From the IMG/VR virus record IMGVR_UViG_3300021426_000077, positions 1 to 64,000 of that record: 64,000 nucleotides of DNA; one strand, written 5' to 3'. The first letter of the stretch is position 1. Each line of letters begins with the position of its first letter. The notes beneath the pieces were generated by a model. That model worked only from the letters and a program-made list of their open reading frames with translations. It did not search any database and was not told where the DNA came from. Made by a program: the position numbers and the translations under genes. This DNA comes from a virus. Taxonomy: Duplodnaviria > Caudoviricetes. Below, piece by piece: positions 25,429-46,925 of the stretch.

Positions 25429-28400
25429 TTAAACATAAATTTTTTGCATAATATTTGCCTTATAATTAATATTTCCTTCTATTGGAATATGAACATTTAT
25501 TGTATTTGAAGAATAATCTACATCATACAATAATCCATTGTATTGTAATTTATAACTACCACTACTATCATTAATAGGATATAAATGATTATTTATTCTA
25601 TTATTACTTCAATTATCCTCTTCATAATATTCTCAATCACAAAGATTGTTTGAATTATCTGATTTGAACATTTGCCTTCCAAGTATAGTACAGTCATTTA
25701 TTGAATAATTAGCATCTAAATTTAATATACCATTTTGATCTGCTACATATACAGTTGAATTTGACTCTCCTGCTAATGAAATATTTAATCTAGAATAAGG
25801 AGTTCCTTCAAATGACATTGCACTTCAAGAATCTAATTTATGTTCATAGGTAATTTCTTTATTTTTATCATATGCATAATATTTTGCAGTTAATAATGAT
25901 GTGATATTTTGATTATAATTTCAATATCCATCAATTTGTCCAACAATTTCTTCAAATGCTTCATATGCTTGTGGCATACTAATATCTATATAATTTAAAT
26001 CTATATGTGCTTTATAATCAATAGTTGCTTGAGCTTCATTAAATAATGAAATTTCTGAAACTTTTACATTGGCAGGTATTTCATAATAGCCTTCATATTT
26101 TATAGGATTTTCTATTGTTCATTCTCCGTTAACATAATTTTTATTTGAGGTACTAATATAATATTGATAAGCAATAAAAGGTTCTTGATGATCAGTTAAT
26201 TGAGTAATTTGACTATATCAAGGAGTTTCTTGAGTTGGCCATTCTACTTTAATACGAATTCATACTGTATTATTAGGTTCTTCTGGCCTAACGGTTGTCC
26301 ATGAAGCTGAATTGACCGCAGGTTTGCTATTGCTTTCACAATATTCTTTAGTTACTTTAAATTCTTCAATTTCTTCAATAAAAACAGGATCAGTATATTC
26401 AGATCCTATTCCTAATGTATTGTCATAATCTATCTTTATACGAATTCAAATAAATTTATCTTTAATATCATCGTTTATTTTTTTCTTAGCAGGAACAAAT
26501 ATAGTACGAGATAATTGTTCAATATTATTATTTTCATCATAATCATTATAAGGATTAATTAAACTAAGTTTTAATTTATATCCTAATCCTAAATTATAAC
26601 TAACATCATCTGAAGGCGTTGCTGTTCCTTTATCATCAATTAATTTTAGTATTTTAAGTAAATTTGAAGAATTTTCAACAGCAATAGAATTGTCTCCTTC
26701 TCATAAAACCAATTCATTACCCGGTATATCTGCAATAATAGAGGCTTCAGTATCCTCTCATCTACTAAGTCATTCAGTTAAAGTATTTATTTCTTTTCAT
26801 TGAGCTATTAAATTAACACTGTGATTTCTAGTATAAATATCTCCTGGTTGATAAATTTCAAATCATTCAAGATAAAAACGCTCTCATACATGTATTCCAT
26901 CAGTACTAATAGGAGAATTTGTTGTTCATTGATCATCATCAGGATTAGGAATAACAGTTGTAGAAGAAACATAATATTCTTTAACAATATTAAGTTGATT
27001 ATATTCTGTAATACAAACTGGAGTGCTATAATAATAATTATTATCATTCGGTCATTTTATTTTAATGCGAGATCAAATATATTTATTATCTTCTTGTGTT
27101 GGTTTATCTGTACTTCATTCATTCGATGATTGAAGTAAAGGAGTAATTATAGAATCAGATAAACAATACTCTTGAGTTAATTGCACTCTATTTTCTTCTA
27201 TCATTTTAGGTGCATTAGAGCCACTTTGGTCATATCCAAAATATTCAATTTGATTAGATTTTCATCCAGTAAAAACATGATCTAAATAAATCGGCTTAGT
27301 ATAAGAAAGCTTAATATCTTGATTATAAATTTTTGTTTGAGATACTGGAACACTTTGATTATTTCCTTCACCTGCATTATAATCAATATTATATTTTGCA
27401 GTTGTTCATTTTGCATAAACAGTAATATTATCAGAAGGAATAAAAACGATTGAATTTGTAGAAATTAATTTGTTATAATTTTTATCAGCATACCATCCTT
27501 TAAAATCATATCCATAACAAAAATCTGGTGGAGTTAAAATAACATATCTATTAATAGTATTATAATTTTCTTTTAAAACCGGAGTACTATAATCTATTTG
27601 ATTATTGCTTCAAATATTTTTAGTGCGCACTCATAAATAATTATTTTCAGGTATATTTTCTGGTTCTTCTTCAGATCATTCAACTTCATTAGTAGGTTCT
27701 TCGGTACTGCTATTTGATATATAATATTCTAAATTATAATCAACTATATTTGATTTTTCTCATTGAGCATATAAAGATATATCTTTATTTTCAACATATT
27801 GCTGATTAGAATTATATTCAATTCCATCCCCATCGATATTTCTATTTCATTTTTGCATAAAATTATATCTAGAAATTGGTTGAACATTATATGTATCTGT
27901 CTTTTTATAATAATTAGAATTATTATAATCTATTACAACCGTATATCTATTTATTTCATCATCTCTATAAAGCATTATATCTGAAATAGTGCTAGGGACA
28001 CCTACTGCGGCGGTTGTTACTAAAGGCCCATAAATTTTATTTTCTTGAGTATCTGTATATCAACCTTTATTAAAATTGTATACAATTTCATAATTTTCAC
28101 TAGCTACTGGCCTAGCTCGTAAAATTAAATTATTATTAGTTGTAGGCTGATATTTTTCTCCTGGTTGCCCTTCACCAATATGAATTTCTTGATTATTAAT
28201 TACTTCATAAATATCTCACATATTATAGTTAGAATTATTAATTATAGGTAAAGTAATTACTGAAGTAATTGATTCTGAATCTCATTGTGGATAAAGTACA
28301 AGATCAATATTTGTTTCATCTTTTTGAATTGTTCCTTTTTCAGAAACTCCTGCTATATATATATCATTTTTATTATAAATATTTTCTGGATTATTATCTG

Positions 28401-31107
28401 AAGGATTGTCATTAATATTTCAATTTTTAAATAGATATGAAGTTGCTGCATTAAAGATATTTTCTTGAATTAATTCTTCTCCAATATAAAAACTTGCATT
28501 AAAAGTGTGTTGTTCAGCTTTTCTTCTTGGTTCGATTGAACTAATTCTTAAATGATCTCCGTAAGATCAATTTCTTTGTGGTTCTGGTAAATCTTCAATA
28601 TTAACCCCTTGATTAGGGAGATACTCAATATTATATGCTATCTTTTTTCATTTTGCATATAAAACAATATCTTTTCTTTCTGGGCTTAATAAATCTGAAG
28701 CATATGAATTTCCTGGTTCTAATTTAATTGTATCATATTTTGGACTTTGATACCATCCATCAAATATATATCCGTTTCTGTGTTTACCTTCTAATAATGT
28801 TGCTCCATCAATTCGTGGACCTCAAATTGCATTTAAATTAATAATAGTTCCAGGAGAAACAGTAAAAGTGACTGTATCGCCAGGAAAATAGTGAGTATCA
28901 TTGTCTGGATCATTACCATATAGCCAATATTCAAAAGGTATATTTTCTTGAATATCATTTTCTCTTTCAGAAGTTCCATCTTGATAATCATAAGTAATTG
29001 AATATGGAGTAACAGTTGCAGTAGAACTGAGCTTTATTTTTGGCTTATTTAAACTAAGTACTGTTGTACCAGGACTAATTGAAACTTCTACAGAACTAGG
29101 CATATTGTCTACAGAGTAAGTTACAGTATTTTTATTATATTGAAGTATATATGTAGTAGGAATTCAATGTGCATATAAATATTCTGTATTATTTCTCTTA
29201 TTAACATACTTATCTTCTAATTGATAATTTTTAGCATCTGGTTCTATAATTTTATATGAATAATCATTATCATATACAGAACTATATCACCCAGTAAATT
29301 CATAATTATCTCTAGGTGCAAGAGCCGGAAGATTTGTTAAAGTAGGATATTCAGTAGGAGGATGTTCTATTCATTGTGCAGATAAAATTATATCTTCATA
29401 TTTATTATATTGATCTCCCGCATTATAAATAGTGATAGCGCCAGATTGATCTTTATTTAATCAAGTTCCATCAAATTCATAAGTAGTTGTATTAAAAACA
29501 GAAGCAGTAAAAATAGAAGTTTGATCTGTAAATATTCCATCTGTGGAATGAAATTCTACGTTATAATTATTTCGTTTACTTCCAGGAGAGATATTATGAG
29601 AAGATGTTGTAGCTAAAGTTATAGGTATTCCTTGATATGTAGTTGTAAATGAAGGGGTAATTGAACCTCCATTTCCATCATAAGTAACAGTATATTTTAG
29701 TCTTTCTCATTGTGCATATAAAGTAATATCTTCAGTTATAGCTGGTAAAATATTTTTTTGATTTTTAGTATAACTTTTTCCAGTACCATCTGCTTTAGAA
29801 TTTCATTCTTTGAATTTATAATACAATAAACTTGGAGTTTTATCAATAGTACTTCATGGATCACCATAATTATGAAGTACATTATTTGGAATATCAGTTC
29901 AATCTATATCTATATTTTCTGGAGCATCTTGAGGTTTTTGGCCTGTATAAAAAACTCTTTTTTGAACACGAATTCATTGAGCAGATAAAGTCGTTGATTT
30001 ATTTTTAATATATTGGCTTTCATTAGATACAGTATAAATATCTCCATCGCTATCAATTCAATGTTCAAATGTATATCCTGTTTTTTCTGGAACATGCGTT
30101 AATGCAAGAGGAACATTATATTCTTTATCTTCTGATAAACCTCATTCTCAATATCCTCCATTTAATTCATAATTAATTGTATAAATTGCTGGAATTCATT
30201 GAGCATATAATGTTAAATCTGTAGTATCTTCATAAAGACCTTGTGATTGACCTGCGCCATAAGAAGTTCCAGTACCATCAGAAGCAGTATTTCATTCATT
30301 AAATAAAAATCCATCTCTTGGTACATAACCAGAAATTGTTTCTCAATTTTGTCCATATGTAGCTGTTTGTTCTTCTGATGCTTGATAACTGTTTAATGGA
30401 TGATTATATTCATATTTTACAGTATAATTATTAGGAGCAAATTGTGCATAAAGATCTAGATTACTATTTGTTGTGATTTCAGTTGTATAAACTGTTCCAC
30501 TTCCATCTTGATTGGTTGTTCATTTATTTAAAAAATGATATCCTAATTTTGTGCCAGGAGATTTAGTAGTTATTGGAAGTGTTGTATCGTGTCATTTTGT
30601 TTCTATTCAAGATGAAGTAACAGACCCTTCATTTGGATAATATGTTACAGTATATTTAGTTTTAGGATTTACTAAAATTCTTACTGTAGCAGAAGTTTCT
30701 CTAAAATTTCTTTCAGGAATATAAGTCCGAAATTCAAGTAAAAATCCTTCATTATTTTCAGATCGATTAAATGTTTTATCATATGTAAGTTTACCTACAA
30801 TAACACCTTTATTATCTGAAGTATCTCTACCTTTTGTAATATCATAAGTATTTTTTAACTTTACTCAACCATATCAATTATTACCACTAATATCTTTAGA
30901 AGTACGATATCAAAGTTCAAGTTCAAAACCATAATCATAATTATGATAATAATGACCATCACCATCACGAGCACAACAGTATATATAAAAACCAGCTTGA
31001 CTTTTTGTATTTAATGTTTGTTCACAATAAATATAAGGTTGAATTTTTCGATTATGGCCATCTGTAGCTCATGCAGCTGTTCCTCATTTTTCTCATTCTG
31101 TCGCCAT
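25429..31107 (-). CDS. Large tail protein with many Listeria-Bacteroides repeats, about 1,892 aa
   Basis: Roughly ten or more YxVxY..NG...GYxFxxW...LYAxW units and W-S...P...YIW-xR repeats; track ORFs at 29103 and 25818 are in frame. Confidence 0.7.
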
Positions 31108-38114: not shown

Positions 38115-41100
38115 TTAAATCTTTCTGTGGGCATATTGATAAGCTGTGTCAGCTAAATTAGTTAAAGCAGTTTCAATCTCGAAAGAATCTTTGACATTCG
38201 GGAATTCAGCTTTAATTTCTACTCTTTGATCAACAGTACCTCCAAAAGCAGAACTCATAAAGTTAGCTTTCATACCACTGGAAGAATAATTTGTTAAAGC
38301 ACTACCAAGAGTAGAAGTCATTTGTCTAACAATATCAACCGCGGAAAGGATATTGCGTGTATCCTGAGCATTGAGAACAAGTTCTTTCTGATGAAGAACT
38401 GCAAGGCGTCCGTCCTTACCTCATTCACCAGTGTATCCGCCAGTGTCAAATAGTTGATCTTCTTTAATTCATCCTAAATCGCCGCCATCTAGAGTTTCTA
38501 TATGGATATTATATGAGCCATATCCAGAACCTCTTGAAAAACTTGAAATCCTAATTTTATTTGCTTGTCCAGATAAACTGTTACCGAATCCGCCACCGCC
38601 TCAAGAATTTCCATAATATGAACCTTTATATCCAGCAATTGAGCCATTTGGGAAAGTTTTTTTCGTAGTTGCAGATTCCATCGTAGACGTTGAAGTAGAA
38701 GTCGGTTTTTCTTCTGCAGGTTTAGCATCTTCAGGTAATGGAGCCTTTGTTTCATATACTAAATTATCTGTATTAATTTTTTGTAAATCGTTAATAGCTT
38801 CTTGAGCTTTACTTAATCAATCAACAGCTGCGGCTAATTCTTCAGTATATTTTTTAATATTATTCATGCCTTCAGTTAATTTTTCATTTTGATTTTTAAA
38901 ACTGTCTGTTAAAGAATCCATCGCATTGTTTAATCCATTTTCGCCAGTAATAGCATTGGCAGCATCTTCTAATGCAGGCCTTAAACCAGTTTCTTCATCA
39001 ATTAAAGCTTTCTTAACATCTGTAATAACACCATCTGGACCAGTTAATTTATTACGAAGTTCTTCTGCTTCCGTTTTTAAAGTATCATTCATAGTAGAAG
39101 TTGCATCTTGTATATATGGGAATAATTTCTTTGCTAAATTATTTCCAAAATCCCATCATGCAATATCTGTATTTTCTATTAAGTTGCCTTGATCATCAAA
39201 TAATTGTCCAAGCATTTCTTGAGCAGCTGCTGCAATATCTGCGGTACCATTTTCTACCATGAAGTTTAATACATCTGACATACCTAATTGACTATCTGCT
39301 AAATCTTCATTAAGATGCTTCATATAATTTAAGAATTTTTCTGTTAATTCTCGACTTTGTTTTATGCGTTCTTCTTCAGTTAGATTCATATTTTTATTTA
39401 AATCTGCCCATTGACTAGCATAATCTTTTAAAGTATTTCCTAATTCTTCTGCTGTTTTTTGCCTTTGTTCTTTTGTAAGTTCATAAGCATCTTGTACTGC
39501 TTGCATATACTCTTGACGAGCTTTTGCAATATCATTTTGATTTGCACGATATACATAACGATAATTACCTTGACTATCTCGACGTAACTGCATTTGGTTT
39601 TTATTTTGTTGAGCATCCTCAAGGGCAATCTGTTTTTGAAGAATTAGAAGTTTAGAATTAGCTAATTCAACATCATATTCAGACATAGATTCTTGATTCT
39701 TTAATAAATCTAATTGTTCTTGCATTTGTTTGCGGATTTTGTTTTGAGTAGCTAAAGATGAACCTTGAGCATCATTAAGTAAATCATTATATTTGCTACG
39801 AAGCTGTTCAATTTCAAATGTCTTTTCAACTTCATCTCGGTAATTATCAACTATCTTCTTATTTCATTCTCAATTTTGATTAATATGATCTAGATTATCT
39901 TCACGGATAGTCGCATTGTACATTTGCTGAACTGCCGCATCAATAGCATTCTCATAAGCTTCAACGAAAGTCTCCGCAGACTCTTGAGCTATATCGCGCA
40001 TTTCATCTTGAACATCATTCATACGATCTTCAATAGAATTTGCTAATTCTTCGTTTCCAGTATCTAAAGCTTCTTGATATTTTTTTTGTCAATACTTATA
40101 AATATTAACATATTGACCTAATTGAGCTTTTAATGTTTCAGCTTGACGTTTATTAATGTCGCTTAAAGCTTTATAACTTTCGTCTCCATATGATAAAGCA
40201 TATATATCAGCTAGATTTTCGAGCTCTTCTGCAAGACGTTCATATTTTTCAAGTTGACGATCTTGCTTATCAGCTATTTCATCAAAACCATCAATAACAG
40301 TATCAACAATATCTTCTTGTAAATCCTGTCAATCTTGACTTAATTCAAGAACTCTTTCATATCCTTCTTGATATGCTTCTGCTAAAGCTTTTTGATTATC
40401 TCCAAATGGATTTTCACCAGCTGTTGGATCATTTCTATATCATTTTTCAAGTTGCTCTAAATCAGTTGTTGCAAGGCCAAGAAGACCATTCTTTAACCTA
40501 TCATCTGTTAAGCCTTCTTTTAATCCGGTAAAATAATTAATTGAAGCTTGAATTGCTTCTTTTTCTGCTATATCATCTGTAGCATCTTGAGCTGCAAGTT
40601 TACCATTAATAATTTCTTGATAATATTTCTCTGCATCTTCTCGTCCAATTTCAAAACTAGTATTTAATTTAAGAAGATCAACAGTTAATTCTCTAAATGG
40701 AGAATCACTAGGCATACCAGTTAAGAAACCTTGAAATTCTGCTCATTTTTCATTTAAATCTTTAAGATTATCAATAGCTTCCATAGAAGTTTTATAAAGT
40801 TCAATATTAATATCTGTAATAGAATCTTTAAGCTCTTGAATTTTATTCTTAGTAGATTCAATTTCTTTTTGAATATCATTTTGTCTTTGAGCATTCTCAA
40901 GGATTGCTGCAGAATAATCATCATATTTCTTAATAGCTTCATCAATAGTTTTTGTTAGATCTTCATTACCCGCAGCTGCCGCAGCATTATATTGGTCAAT
41001 TAATTTATTATGTGCTTCATCAATTTTTGCAGATATAGTTTCATAATTAGTAATGATACCATTTTCATCATATTCTGGAGCAGGAATATTAAAGTTAATA

Positions 41101-44100
41101 CCACGACCTTTAAGAATATCTTCAGCAAGTTTGTCCTTAGCTTCCATCGCGGCTTTTACATCTTTTAGCTCGCTATCGGCCGTATCTTGAAGAATTTTTA
41201 AACGTTCTTCTTCAAGTTTAATTTCTTGCTGAATTAAATTAATTTGCTTTTGCTGATTTGCTCGAGCTTTATCACCAATTAATTTATCTTCTTGCTTTTC
41301 AATTCCAGAAAGTTGTTCCTTAAGTTTATCTAATTGAGAATCAACTTTCTCATAATAGTTCTTTTTATGTTCTTTCTTTTCTTTTGGCTGAATGGTTTTA
41401 GCTTTGCCACCGCCACCGCCACCACCTTTGTTGTGGGCAAGAATTTGATTATGACCAACATAGTAATTGTGGTTATCAGAAACTTCAAAGTTATATACTG
41501 TAGTAGTTTGAATCTTAACATTAATATTAGAAATTACATGTCAATTTCCATCGGCAAACAATACATAATCTCCAATATTAAGTTCAGAAGCCATGATTCA
41601 TTCGATATCATGCTTACGTCTAATATAGAATCTGTGGATACCTGTTACGCTAAGAGTTTCATCTTCAATATATAAATCATAAATTTCTTCTGTAGTATTA
41701 TGAATCATTGTTTGAAGAACTCTGCTGTATTCATTCTGATGATTTTCTTCATTATATGAAAGAACAATATCACCAACTTGAATTTTTTCAATTTCTTTAA
41801 ATGAATTTTGGAGAGAGACTAGAGTGCCTGCAATAAAACAGCTACCGCCACCTCCGCTAGAACGAGGTGCAGCACTACCAGAGCGTTTTTGACTTCCACT
41901 GCCACCGGTTTTACGAGCAGTAGAACGATTAATATGAAGATTACCTCCAGAACTGTAACCTCCTGAAGTAGTTTTCATTGAAAGTGCTGTTGTAGTTGAA
42001 GTCGCAGTATCTGTCATTGGCACTGGCTCCATACGAAATCCACCTATATGAAAAGATCCTGTAACAGTATCTAATCCAGTTCCAGCTTCATTTAATTTTA
42101 CCGGAGCACTAACAGGAACATTTATACCACCAGTTTCAACTGGTCTCCAGCCATAAGCTTCTTTTTCATCTTCAGTAATTTCACTTTCTTCTTTAACCTC
42201 TGCATCTACACCCATTGAAGATAAATATTGTTGAGCTTGATCAGCTGTCATTCCAGCTGCATTAATAATATCTTCAAAAGCAGCTAATAATTCTTCTTCT
42301 CCACTTAAAGAAGCGCCTATTTCAATATCATCTCAACCATTATCATAAAGGATTGATCGAAGATTTGCTGCAGCTTCATAGGCTTGAGTATCATCCATTC
42401 CAGCTTGAATTAAAATATCGGTTTGAGCTGCTTCTCATAAATCTCAATAAGCATCAATATCGCCATTTATCGCAGCTTCTAATGATTCAAGATTATCAGG
42501 ATCAACAATAAAAGCATCAGACAAACTATCCGTATCTAAATCTAACAAATCTTCATAAGTATTTCTTAATTCTTTAGTTGTTTTAGCTAAATCTTCTGGA
42601 TTAGCATTTTCAAGATCCTCTAAAACTTCTTTTCAATCATCTATATTATCAACAGTCCGTTCAACAGCTTTATTATATCTTACTTGAGCCTCTGCTGCTT
42701 CTTTAATAATACTAGGAAAGTCCTCTATATCATCTGCATATTCTGCTAATTGATCATTATATTCATAAATTGCTTTTGCTGTATCTTGTAATGTTTCATT
42801 ATCCACATCACTATCTGAAGAAGTAATTGTTGAAAGATATTCTTTTGGATCAGTATTTAATCCATTTCCTGTACCTGCTAAAATATCGTCAATAGAAATA
42901 CCATTTTCTAAGCCTTCTCGAATTTGGCGCAATAATTCAGCAACTTTAGTATCAACTTCCGGATCAGATCAATCAATTAAACTGACAACAGAAGCTTTTT
43001 GTTCTGCAGTTAAGTCATATTGATCACTTAAAGTATCAATCATCGCTAAACCACGATCACCTTTTTGAGCTCCTCAACTATTTGTGCCATTTTGAGAAAC
43101 TTGATATTCTGCCAATGCCATTTGTGCTTCTGCTGCAGCGTTTAAATTATCTGTCCATTCTGCAGCTTGTTGAGCTAAAGCTATTTGATCTTCTAAGACC
43201 AATCCAGAAAAACCATCTATAATTTGTAAATCAGCGATAATTTCTTCATAAGACTGAGCTTCTCTTAATGCACTATCTTTAGACAAAGCATTCGCTTGTA
43301 CTGCAGTTTCTACTGTTTGTTTATTATAATCATAACTATCTTGATTTTGCTGGATGATTGTATCATAAAGACCAATTCTTCTCTCAAGCTCTGTGTTATT
43401 ATCTAAAAGATTTTGATAATCTTCTGTAGATAATGTATTTGCTTCACGCATAAGACGATTTTGATTTTCTAATAATTGATTAGCAGTTTCTTCTCTCATT
43501 TCTTTAGCAGTTTGAAGCATTTCTGCTGGATTATTAGAAGTATATTCTGTATCTCTTTGACTTTGAGCGCCTCTTCCACCACCTCTATGCGTTGTGGTTG
43601 TGGTTTCGATGCCTAATCTTTCTCTATCTTCTGCACTTAATCTATAAGCATTAGAAAAATCATATTCAGTAGCTTCTGTATTTTGTCCTCGTAAAACTGC
43701 ATTATAATTTAATTGAGCCGCAGTAGCTTCTTCAATTTTTTGTCTTAAAGTTTCATAATCATCAGCTGCGGTTACTACAACTTCAAGAGCTTCAGCTTGT
43801 TCTTCTAGTGCCTGACGTAACTCATCTGCGCCTTCTCCAGTTTGCTTTCATGATTCATATAATTTATCAATATTTTTTAACCCATCTTTTAAACTGGCAG
43901 TATATTCATCTGAAGCACTTATTTGTTCTTCTAATAATCTTTGTTGTTCTTGGCTTCATTTTTGATAAGCAAAACTCATAGCTACTATTGCGGCTAACCC
44001 AGCTAATGCTGCAAAAGTAGCTAATTGTATGGCTGTTGCTTTAGCTGTTTCTGCGGCAGTAACTGCTTTAGCAGCTGCTTCATGCTCTATTTCTGCATCT

Positions 44101-46925
44101 TTTAACGCTTTTTCAGCCATTTGACTTTTTTCTAAAGCTTGTGTAACTCCAATCTGCTTTTTTTCTAAAAAGAAAGCAGAAGCACCACTACTTTTTTGAG
44201 CATCTGCTAATGCTGCTTGAGCTTTTGTAAGATTCTCAGAAGCATTCTTTACCCTTTCTTGTGCTTCTTTATATTTCTCCATAGCTTGACTTGCTTTATC
44301 TTGTAATTCACCAATTTTTGATATAGATGAAAAATCAATACCTTTTAAATTTTGAAAAACAGAAGATAAATTTAAACCAGTTATTCTTTTAAAAGATTCA
44401 TATAAAGTAGGAAGCGAAAAACTCAAATTTGTAACTATCTGAAGTAATTTTTCACCCGTTGTTAAATCTGCATTATTTCAAATAGAAGGTAAATTACTTA
44501 AAGATTGCATTGCAAAACTTAACTGACCAAGTGCTCCAACAATATTAATAATTTGTTGAACACCATCTTGAGAACTCATTCCCTGTTTAAAAGATTCAGC
44601 CAATTTACTTGAATCTATTGCTGCTGTATCCGTATTTAATTGATTAAGATTAGCTTGATCTAATTTTTTAAGATCTATTTGACTTAAACGTTCTAACTCT
44701 TCTATTAACCTTGCAGTTTTTCCTGTAAGTGCAGCTGTTTGAGTCCCAGCTTCTTTTTGATTTTTTCCAATCTGTTTTATTGCTGCATTATATTCAGTAT
44801 ATTGCTCTCCACTTAAATATGGTTTTAATTTTTCTAATGATTGTTCTAATTGTTGAGTAGACCCAGAAAATATTTGGCCACTTTTTTCAGCATTTCTTAA
44901 TTGATTTTGATATTCTTGCAAAGCTTTATTAAATTCAAGTAAGCCTTCTTTTGCAGGCTCTAATTTAGATTTTAAATTAGCAAAAAGATCTTTCTTTTCT
45001 TCTTCAGAAAGTTCTTTTAATTTTTCCATTAATTGTGAAACATTTACAATACCTTCAGAAAGAAAAGGCGTAAAATCTTTATCTAATAAACTAGCAATTC
45101 CAACACCAGTTGCAGACAAAGCTTGATCTAATTTTTCCGCTGCAATTGTAGCAGCATTTCCATTCTGAATTAATTCTTGAAGAATAGTATTTGCTTGATT
45201 TAATTGATCTGGACTAAAATTTTGAGCATTAACTTGCATATATTTAGCAAAATCTAAAGCATTCTGACTGTATTGATTATCTGGATTAGGATTAACCATT
45301 CCTAAATTTGTTAAAGCAGCTTCTGAATGTTCTAAATTAGCTATTTTTTGCTGTTGAACTTTTTGATTTAAATTAAAATCATTAATACTTTGAGCAAGAT
45401 GTTTACTAAATAATTGAGTAAAAGCCGAAGCTAAGCCAAGAATAACAGTTGATCCTCCACCCACAGATTTAAATAATGTATCAAAAACTTCTGCTAATTT
45501 GGTTAAAGTATCAATTAATGGATAAACCATATCAGTTGTAAATACATCATTAAATAAACCTTCTAAAGTAGCTTGTAATTTAGCTGTTCTACCTTCTAAA
45601 GAATCTAAATATTCTTGATTCATTTGTTCAAGAGTACCAGAAGCATTTATACCAGTAGCTCCAAGATATTCTTGATACATATCAGAATTATCCATTAAAG
45701 CAGTAAAACGATTAACTTGATGTTTACCTGCCAGTGTCTGTGCGACAGCTTCTTGAGTGGTATCGTCTAAATCTTGTCAAATTACCATTAAATCTTCCAT
45801 GATATCGTCCATATTACGGACGTTACCAAGAGAATCTAATACTTGAACTCCAATATTTTGAAGTGTCGAAGTAACTTTGCCAAGACCAATACCATCTTCA
45901 TCTTCTTTACCTAATTGCAAATCAGAAAAACGAGCATATAATGTTTTAAGACCATTACCAATTTGTTCTGGCGCTTCTCGTGTTACAGACTCAATTGTAG
46001 CAATTTGCGCAGCAAGTGCTTCGCCACTAACACCAACTGCATTGGCCATCGAAGCAGCTCTCTGAGATGCCAACGCAATTTCTTCAACATCAGCCGCGGA
46101 AATATTAGCAATTAACGCTCAATTATCCATTGCTTGACTGAGCGCTTCCATGTCATCTTGTAATCCATATGCATTCATATATGCGGTAATTTGATCAGAA
46201 GTCGCCGCAGTATCTTGTTGAGAAGCATTTGCAAGTTTAGCAGATAAAGTGGCTAATTGCTGAGACTGATTTAAATCATAGCCTTGCTGAGCAAAAATTA
46301 ACGAAGCATTAGTCATACCCACGGTAGTTTGACCTACAGCTTTTGCTGCTTCATTAGCTGCTTTAGCATATTCATTCATGCTATCACGGCTATAATCGGT
46401 AACAAGCATGATTTGAGTTAGTGAATCATCTAATTCTTTAGCATATTCTACTGAACTATGAATTGCATTCATAAATTGACTAAAGAAACTTGAAATTAAC
46501 CCTCAACGAAATGTATTTTGAAAAGTAACAAACATTTTATCTAATTGAGAACTAGTACGAATAATACCAGTATCTAATTTTCCAAGCTGCCCTATTAAAT
46601 TATTAAATGCAACTTGTCCTTCTGCTCCCATTTGACCAAAAGCTGTTTTTAATCCTTGGGCTGTAACACCATTATTTTTAAGTTCTTGATTAAATTTAGC
46701 TAAATTTAACATTCCAAGAGAAGGATTAAAAGCTTCTGTTAAAGCATCTCCTAAACCATGAATTTGATCTCGAGCATCAGAAAAGGTTTTTTCTTCTAAT
46801 AAACCTTTATTACCCATATTCTGCAATTTTAATTCTAAATTTTGTAATTCAGTTTTTAATTGAGTTATACCTTTAGAATCTAATTTAGTAGAAATATTAT
46901 ATTCAATACTATTAGAATATTTCAT
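38115..46925 (-). CDS. Tape measure protein (TP901-like N-terminus), about 2,936 aa, with internal Hint domain
   Basis: Thirteen track ORFs in one frame joined by TGA; LDDSLTQIMLVT...IGNGLKTLYARF; long coiled coils; C-terminal FDTGGYTGEW...AVLHQKELVLN. Confidence 0.9.
41430..41840 (-). other. Hint (intein-like/BIL-type) domain, 137 aa, inside the tape measure protein
   Basis: CFIAGTLV (block A), TGIHRF (block B TxxH), VYNFEVSDNHNYYV (block F), LAHN end; +1 residue is Lys; no homing endonuclease. Confidence 0.92.

Follow-up and report, generated by a model that had tools for sequence, protein, structure and literature searches.

A predicted bacterial intein-like Hint domain as an optional cassette in the glycine hinge of giant phage tape measure proteins

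Phage tape measure proteins (TMPs) such as lambda gpH, which is converted to gpH*, and T5 pb2 are proteolytically processed near their C termini, and not by a built-in Hint domain. In this study, we analyzed the first 64 kb (hereafter, the window) of the 100,427-bp IMG/VR virus record IMGVR_UViG_3300021426_000077, which is estimated to be ~72% complete, and in particular its TMP gene, whose product of 2,936 amino acids (aa) carries a Hint domain that, compared with the processing of gpH and pb2, lies mid-protein and is optional. The closest described systems are the type-A bacterial intein-like domains (BILs) (Amitai 2003; Dassa 2004; Aranko 2013; 2LWY), which resemble the TMP Hint in their ~137 aa, Cys1, TxxH motif and terminal His-Asn, in the absence of an endonuclease and of a +1 nucleophile, and in a variable, non-conserved host region. 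Type-A BILs form a thioester at Cys1 and cleave at Asn, and the flanks can then be ligated when the amino group released on the C fragment attacks the thioester (PMC4031507; PMC7664689). The TMP Hint differs from them in its phage TMP host, a fixed poly-Gly hinge, zero to three divergent tandem copies and a near-fixed Lys at +1. It is also similar in fold and sequence to BUBL BIL2 of Tetrahymena thermophila (6Y75/6TMM; Chiarini et al. 2021), in which a Lys epsilon-amine resolves the thioester, yielding an isopeptide (PMC8616854); BIL2, however, is eukaryotic, has ubiquitin-like flanking domains and finds its acceptor Lys inside the C-extein or on other proteins. The PT-HINT domain of polymorphic toxins provides the best Pfam model for the TMP Hint, which, unlike those domains, is not followed by a toxin/immunity module. 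A Hint-fold element in a TMP, as here, is likewise found in the TMP inteins of actinobacteriophages (bioRxiv 10.1101/2025.01.02.630785), but these are of class 1 or 3 with the standard splicing residues, whereas the present Hint belongs to a BIL subfamily without a +1 nucleophile. Full-text literature searches for Hint, BIL or intein in TMPs found no description of this Hint-bearing TMP family.

The reading we prefer, at a probability of roughly 55%, is that the Hint copies excise and the two TMP halves rejoin, the Hint acting as an optional type-A BIL cassette of the poly-Gly hinge. By analogy with known BILs, the halves would probably rejoin through the Lys at +1, and recombination in or beside the hinge would probably add and remove copies. 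The features concerned are as follows.

38115-46925, minus strand: TMP gene, 2,936 aa, read with TGA as Trp (table 4); 25 TGA and 4 TGG codons
41430-41840, minus strand: predicted type-A BIL/PT-HINT Hint domain, 137 aa, TMP residues 1696-1832
41841-41861, minus strand: N-side hinge linker SSGGGGS, residues 1689-1695, with Ser at -1
41838-41840, minus strand: codon of Cys1 (Cys1696), the putative N-junction nucleophile; Cys in 157/157 family copies
41634-41645, minus strand: block B, T66-G-I-H69; Thr and His invariant across the family (157 copies)
41430-41435, minus strand: codons of the terminal His136-Asn137 (Asn1832 at 41430-41432); HN in 157/157 copies
41427-41429, minus strand: codon of the +1 Lys, AAA
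41403-41429, minus strand: C-side hinge linker KGGGGGGGK, residues 1833-1841
41598-41600, minus strand: TGA codon for Hint W81 (Trp in 99% of family copies)
41541-41543, minus strand: TGA codon for Hint W100
38118-41429, minus strand: conserved C part of the TMP, 1,104 aa (family median 1,105), ending in a C-terminal motif common to Hint-less TMPs

A preliminary description of this DNA had reported a 137-aa Hint at about residue 1696 with Gly-rich flanks, Cys1, TxxH, His-Asn and a +1 Lys and without an endonuclease, and this was correct in every detail; 137 aa is too short to accommodate an endonuclease. In a Pfam search with the isolated Hint, PT-HINT (PF07591) scored 78.7 bits (E 6e-22; 73.4 bits in the whole protein; cut-off, 27.7), while Intein_splicing (PF14890) and Hint ranked lower at 36.8 and 30.9 bits, so that the hidden Markov model assignment proposed earlier as a check came out as BIL/PT-HINT type and not as canonical intein. 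The closest solved sequence relative was the Clostridium thermocellum BIL 2LWY, matched at full length (E 4e-20), and Tetrahymena BIL2 was the second-best match (E 2e-5; 25% identical), with inteins at E values of at least 7e-4. An AlphaFold2 (AF2) model of the Hint (pLDDT 87.6) predicted an all-beta horseshoe HINT fold that matched 2LWY best (template modeling score, TM, 0.81/0.91; root mean square deviation, 1.4 A), followed by Tetrahymena BIL2 (TM 0.75-0.77), ahead of mini-inteins and Hedgehog. Foldseek returned 66 matches to this model at E<=1e-3, and the top matches listed were BIL, intein or Hedgehog chains. With Cys1, a block-B TxxH, His-Asn, no Cys/Ser/Thr at +1, a variable host region and BILs as its closest relatives, the domain is, as judged from sequence and model, a type-A BIL Hint.

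We then surveyed the family. With the hinge region as query, 171 giant proteins of 1.6 to 5 thousand aa were found, and the Hint counts rest on the 120 listed of these 171. Nearly all of the 120 Hint-bearing TMPs contained both PF10145 and PF07591. One Hint copy was present in 86 of them, two in 29 and three in five; the array copies were tandem, with spacers made up of K, G and S residues only. All 157 full-length copies started with Cys and ended with His-Asn, and neither a decayed copy nor a lost nucleophile was seen among them. The +1 residue was Lys in 155 copies, Ile in one and Met in one, and the junctions inside the tandem arrays had Lys at +1 without exception (39/39). In the family as a whole, the residue after +1 was usually Gly. 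By comparison, Lys occupied +1 in 41% of the non-TMP relatives of the same Hint subfamily. The tandem Hints within one protein were 54-73% identical. The Hint position was constant when counted from the C terminus (median, 1,105 aa), whereas the N part varied from 1,626 to 2,858 aa.

Related Hints were observed in other settings as well. The TMPs P0089 and P0096 had a second Hint at another site, 31-34% identical to the first and followed by Ile or Met at +1. The non-TMP proteins P0202 (1,285 aa), P0226, P0230 and P0208 carried arrays of up to seven full Hints with K, KC, KGG or RS spacers. A Hint search of the whole library found 19,720 representatives at E<=1e-3, and Hints of the GGGGS|CFIAGT...HN form also occurred in other phage proteins (L006:7856-10435, L008:9494-10528, L007:8684-10882 and L010:6923-9931). 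Those of L006 and L008 lay at the extreme C terminus, 4-6 residues before the stop, with Glu at +1 and without a Pfam match outside the Hint, and the L006 protein looked tail-fibre-like. L007 encoded a tandem Hint pair (HN|KG|CF), and L010 a single Hint followed by a long Lys/Gly-rich tail.

A second search was performed with the C part as query. It yielded 73 Hint-less related TMPs, making 193 related giant TMPs together. The Hint-less TMPs were ~140 aa shorter than their one-Hint relatives and had an unbroken Gly hinge equally far from the C terminus, for example ...GGGGGGKGGGGGGSKAKTIEPKEKK; another such hinge, ...SSSGGGGGGKGGGGGGSKAKTIEPKEKK, nearly equals the window TMP with its Hint deleted, SSGGGGS-KGGGGGGGKAKTIQPKEKK. 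A Gly hinge ~1,100 residues from the C terminus was found across the TMP family, including deep Hint-less clades that use the standard code. On a FastTree phylogeny of the C parts (144 rows), Hint presence or absence required 11 changes, 10 of these being forced by well-supported branches, and Hint copy number required 19. Furthermore, TMPs with near-identical C parts had unequal Hint copy numbers, as in P0055 (one) and P0123 (none), P0056 (one) and P0007 (two), and P0084 (one) and P0008 (two). In the P0055/P0123 pair, the gap ended exactly at HN|K, and the two proteins were 96-100% identical from Lys+1 on. Thus, given the Hint-less hinges, the changes on the tree and these pairs, the Hint is an optional cassette and not a fixed part of the TMP family. 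This result did not support the proposal of the preliminary description that the Hint is a built-in autoproteolytic tail-maturation system, since 0-3 copies and at least 10 presence/absence changes were found and the Hint-less TMPs are continuous. In the IMG/VR sample, the Hint was present in four of the five related TGA-recoded TMP loci, in addition to the window, and in 0 of ~20 full-length standard-code loci; this association with recoded loci may simply be phylogeny.

The nearest relative of the window TMP, L014 (on the same contig as L005), was used to assess selection. Between the two, the Hint showed 29 synonymous and six non-synonymous differences, giving a ratio of non-synonymous to synonymous substitution rates (dN/dS) of 0.038, versus 0.12-0.18 in the flanking conserved TMP modules, while dS was similar (0.48 in the Hint; 0.31-0.40 in the flanks). 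This indicated that the Hint is under strong purifying selection and is not neutral. A sporadic neutral insert had been named beforehand as an outcome that would defeat the self-processing proposal; the Hint is indeed sporadic, but its dN/dS does not agree with neutrality. In 81 protein pairs, the Hints were >90% identical while the downstream 300 aa were <60% identical. The greater conservation of the Hint than of its flanks fits strong constraint and, possibly, also exchange between alleles. The further TMP regions used below are these.

41841-45428, minus strand: hypervariable TMP middle, residues ~500-1695, 20-30% identical to L014
43962-44039, minus strand: sole strongly hydrophobic segment of the TMP, residues 963-988, in the N part
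45726-46355, minus strand: PhageMin_Tail (PF10145), TMP residues 191-400, 83 bits

The window TMP and L014 were ~90% identical in residues 100-500 and again from Cys1 to ~2700, and identity switched at the first Hint residue; in other pairs, the switch fell at the last Hint residue. A TMP middle of 20-30% identity between an N domain and a C part of 90-100% identity was found not only for window/L014 but also for P0055/P0123, P0056/P0007 and P0084/P0008. Swapping of modules may lie behind this pattern, or an arms race with exclusion systems that target the TMP. Because this region is hypervariable, a scan of IMG/VR with the upstream flank gave no matches. Judged by these alignments, the hinge is a recombination boundary between the hypervariable middle and the conserved C part, and such a boundary would lead to Hint gain and loss and to the stacking of divergent copies into arrays. 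Recent tandem duplication was ruled out as the origin of the arrays, since copies in one protein are only 54-73% identical, and the arrays are better accounted for by unequal recombination between alleles with different Hints. There was no support for a recent arrival of the Hint in this genome by lateral transfer, its dS (0.48) not being below that of the flanks (0.31-0.40); Hint exchange elsewhere in the family is possible, given the 81 pairs of alike Hints with unlike flanks. Supportively, the preliminary view that the Hint has long resided in recoded genomes agreed with the four related TGA-recoded loci, in which the Hint Trp codons were mostly TGA and the Hint composition matched that of the host gene.

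In the proposed mechanism, an N-S acyl shift at Cys1 would form a thioester, cyclization of Asn137 to a succinimide would free Lys+1, and the amine of Lys+1 would then attack the thioester, joining the TMP halves across the hinge. The attacking group could be either the alpha-amine, which has been proposed to act in type-A BILs, or the epsilon-amine, which is reported to do so in Tetrahymena BIL2. Excision and rejoining would explain why both junction residues are kept in every member of the two- and three-copy arrays, as separation alone needs less. The one-piece Hint-less TMPs with near-identical C parts argue for the same process, and the near-fixed Lys+1 (155/157 versus 41% in non-TMP relatives) argues for rejoining. 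In addition, the lumen of the tail tube probably could not accommodate a trimeric TMP with several 15-kDa globular domains on each chain, which argues for excision. From these sequence patterns, we infer that selection keeps complete self-removal for each copy, so that the mature TMP would resemble a one-piece Hint-less TMP. A more specific claim, which we regard as doubtful and which draws on the analogy with BIL2, is that Lys+1 is itself the splicing nucleophile, with lysine-dependent splicing, possibly through an epsilon-isopeptide, in TMPs and in a wider 'HN-K' BIL subfamily, to which the arrays of up to seven Hints belong.

Several points weigh against excision and rejoining, and some of them favor an account in which the Hint only cuts. 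Published type-A BILs, which lack a +1 nucleophile, yield mainly N- and C-cleaved products (PMC4031507; PMC7664689). If the TMP Hint behaved likewise, thioester hydrolysis and Asn cyclization would cut both of its ends and leave TMP pieces of ~1,695 aa and ~1,104 aa that are functional or tolerated. Moreover, a nicked TMP might still work in a coiled-coil bundle, making religation unneeded, and the hinge parts two independently recombining modules that are maybe functionally separable, the C part being of constant length near 1,105 aa. The Lys signal also has a second possible source: G[KR]G was found in 29 of 60 clear hinges of Hint-less TMPs, where Lys is already common, and the +1 Lys may therefore derive partly from the insertion site and not from the chemistry. 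Likewise, because the TMPs recombine as mosaics at the hinge, the changes scored on the C-part tree stem in part from exchange of the N halves. Nevertheless, we consider cleavage alone possible but on balance unlikely. Cutting is not required for maturation, since Hint-less TMPs whose C parts are nearly identical consist of a single piece; one active junction would do, yet every array copy has Cys1 and His-Asn; and the near-fixed Lys+1 would have no role. Among the shorter homologues, there was no clear hinge-split TMP, those found being truncated or ambiguous (e.g., P0373). The preliminary description had divided the cut protein into a ruler and an ejected, membrane-interacting C piece, but this division was not supported, since the sole strongly hydrophobic segment (residues 963-988) belongs to the N part and the C part consists of ordinary, conserved TMP sequence.

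The thioester could instead be captured by a foreign amine, such as Lys+1 of a neighboring chain, another tail protein or the cell wall, to form a covalent link similar to that made by BUBL BIL2 or in transfer of the Hedgehog type. BIL2, the second-best structural match, passes its N-extein to lysines of several substrates (PMC8616854), TMPs are trimeric in the tail tip (PMC8616854) and would thus have their Lys+1 residues close together, and the C-terminal Hints of L006 and L008 are unable to splice and must cleave or transfer. We judge such cross-linking improbable for the TMPs, however, because Hint-less relatives manage without it and tandem arrays would be hard to rationalize. Standard four-step splicing by a canonical class-1 mini-intein has in its favor the presence of Cys1, TxxH and His-Asn, an Intein_splicing score of 36.8 bits and the inteins reported in actinophage TMPs (bioRxiv 10.1101/2025.01.02.630785), but PT-HINT and BILs scored far above the intein models, and the Lys at +1 in 155/157 copies together with a low-complexity Gly linker as insertion site rule it out for practical purposes. 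A release module of a polymorphic toxin was also ruled out, since no toxin follows the Hint (the C part holds no Pfam domain) and the C part is homologous to Hint-less TMPs.

Should excision and religation via Lys+1 prove true, splicing chemistry would extend beyond Cys/Ser/Thr nucleophiles, and protein engineering would gain a ligation module that is compact and does not depend on cysteine. If Lys+1 is indeed the splicing nucleophile, protein splicing would have a fourth route, operating in a large phage structural protein family; the Hint-bearing TMPs are common in metagenomes, with at least 120 clusters at 90% identity. The giant TMPs have a family-wide Gly hinge that tolerates and exchanges cassettes, which are probably self-removing. 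If, on the other hand, cleavage is the sole activity of the Hints, this would be the first case of TMP maturation by a built-in Hint, though an optional one. New in this analysis are the isopeptide precedent of BIL2, the dN/dS contrast and the non-TMP background of the +1 residue.

The identity of the 2,936-aa protein as a TMP holds on its PF10145 match, its TMP-annotated homologues and its gene neighbors. Similar proteins annotated as TMPs occur in Enterococcus, Brevibacillus and Bacillus phages, the N module of the window TMP is ~90% identical to that of L014, and genes for a terminase, a portal and virion proteins lie upstream, with large unannotated open reading frames (ORFs) downstream. 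The three phage GenBank relatives examined, MT835936.1, Enterococcus phage EF1 and Phass-1, were ~26-32% identical to the window TMP and Hint-less. The genes of the window are open only with TGA as a sense codon, and its reading as Trp in the TMP is supported by the sequence comparison, Trp being found in standard-code homologues at conserved TGA columns. The two TGA-Trp codons reported earlier inside the Hint were recovered (W81 and W100). The accompanying statement that Hint processing depends on recoding is true but trivial, as the TMP gene as a whole contains 25 TGA codons in frame.

The window itself contains no tRNA. Outside it, within a cluster of 10 phage tRNAs, lies a tRNA of 94 nt that has a UCA anticodon and a long extra arm (G000 94246-94339, minus strand; L045:10246-10339), which ARAGORN called tRNA-SeC and which is likely a TGA suppressor. 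The densest in-frame TGA in the window was found in a 1,892-aa ORF (25429-31107, minus strand), which has 56 such codons and no PHROG match. Six further loci (L035, L037-L040 and L042) encode TMP homologues of ~31% identity. Under codes 4, 11 and 15, their reading frames are interrupted after 220-350 aa, yet the tblastn matches extend to the C terminus; an intron, a frameshift or another recoding could account for these breaks.

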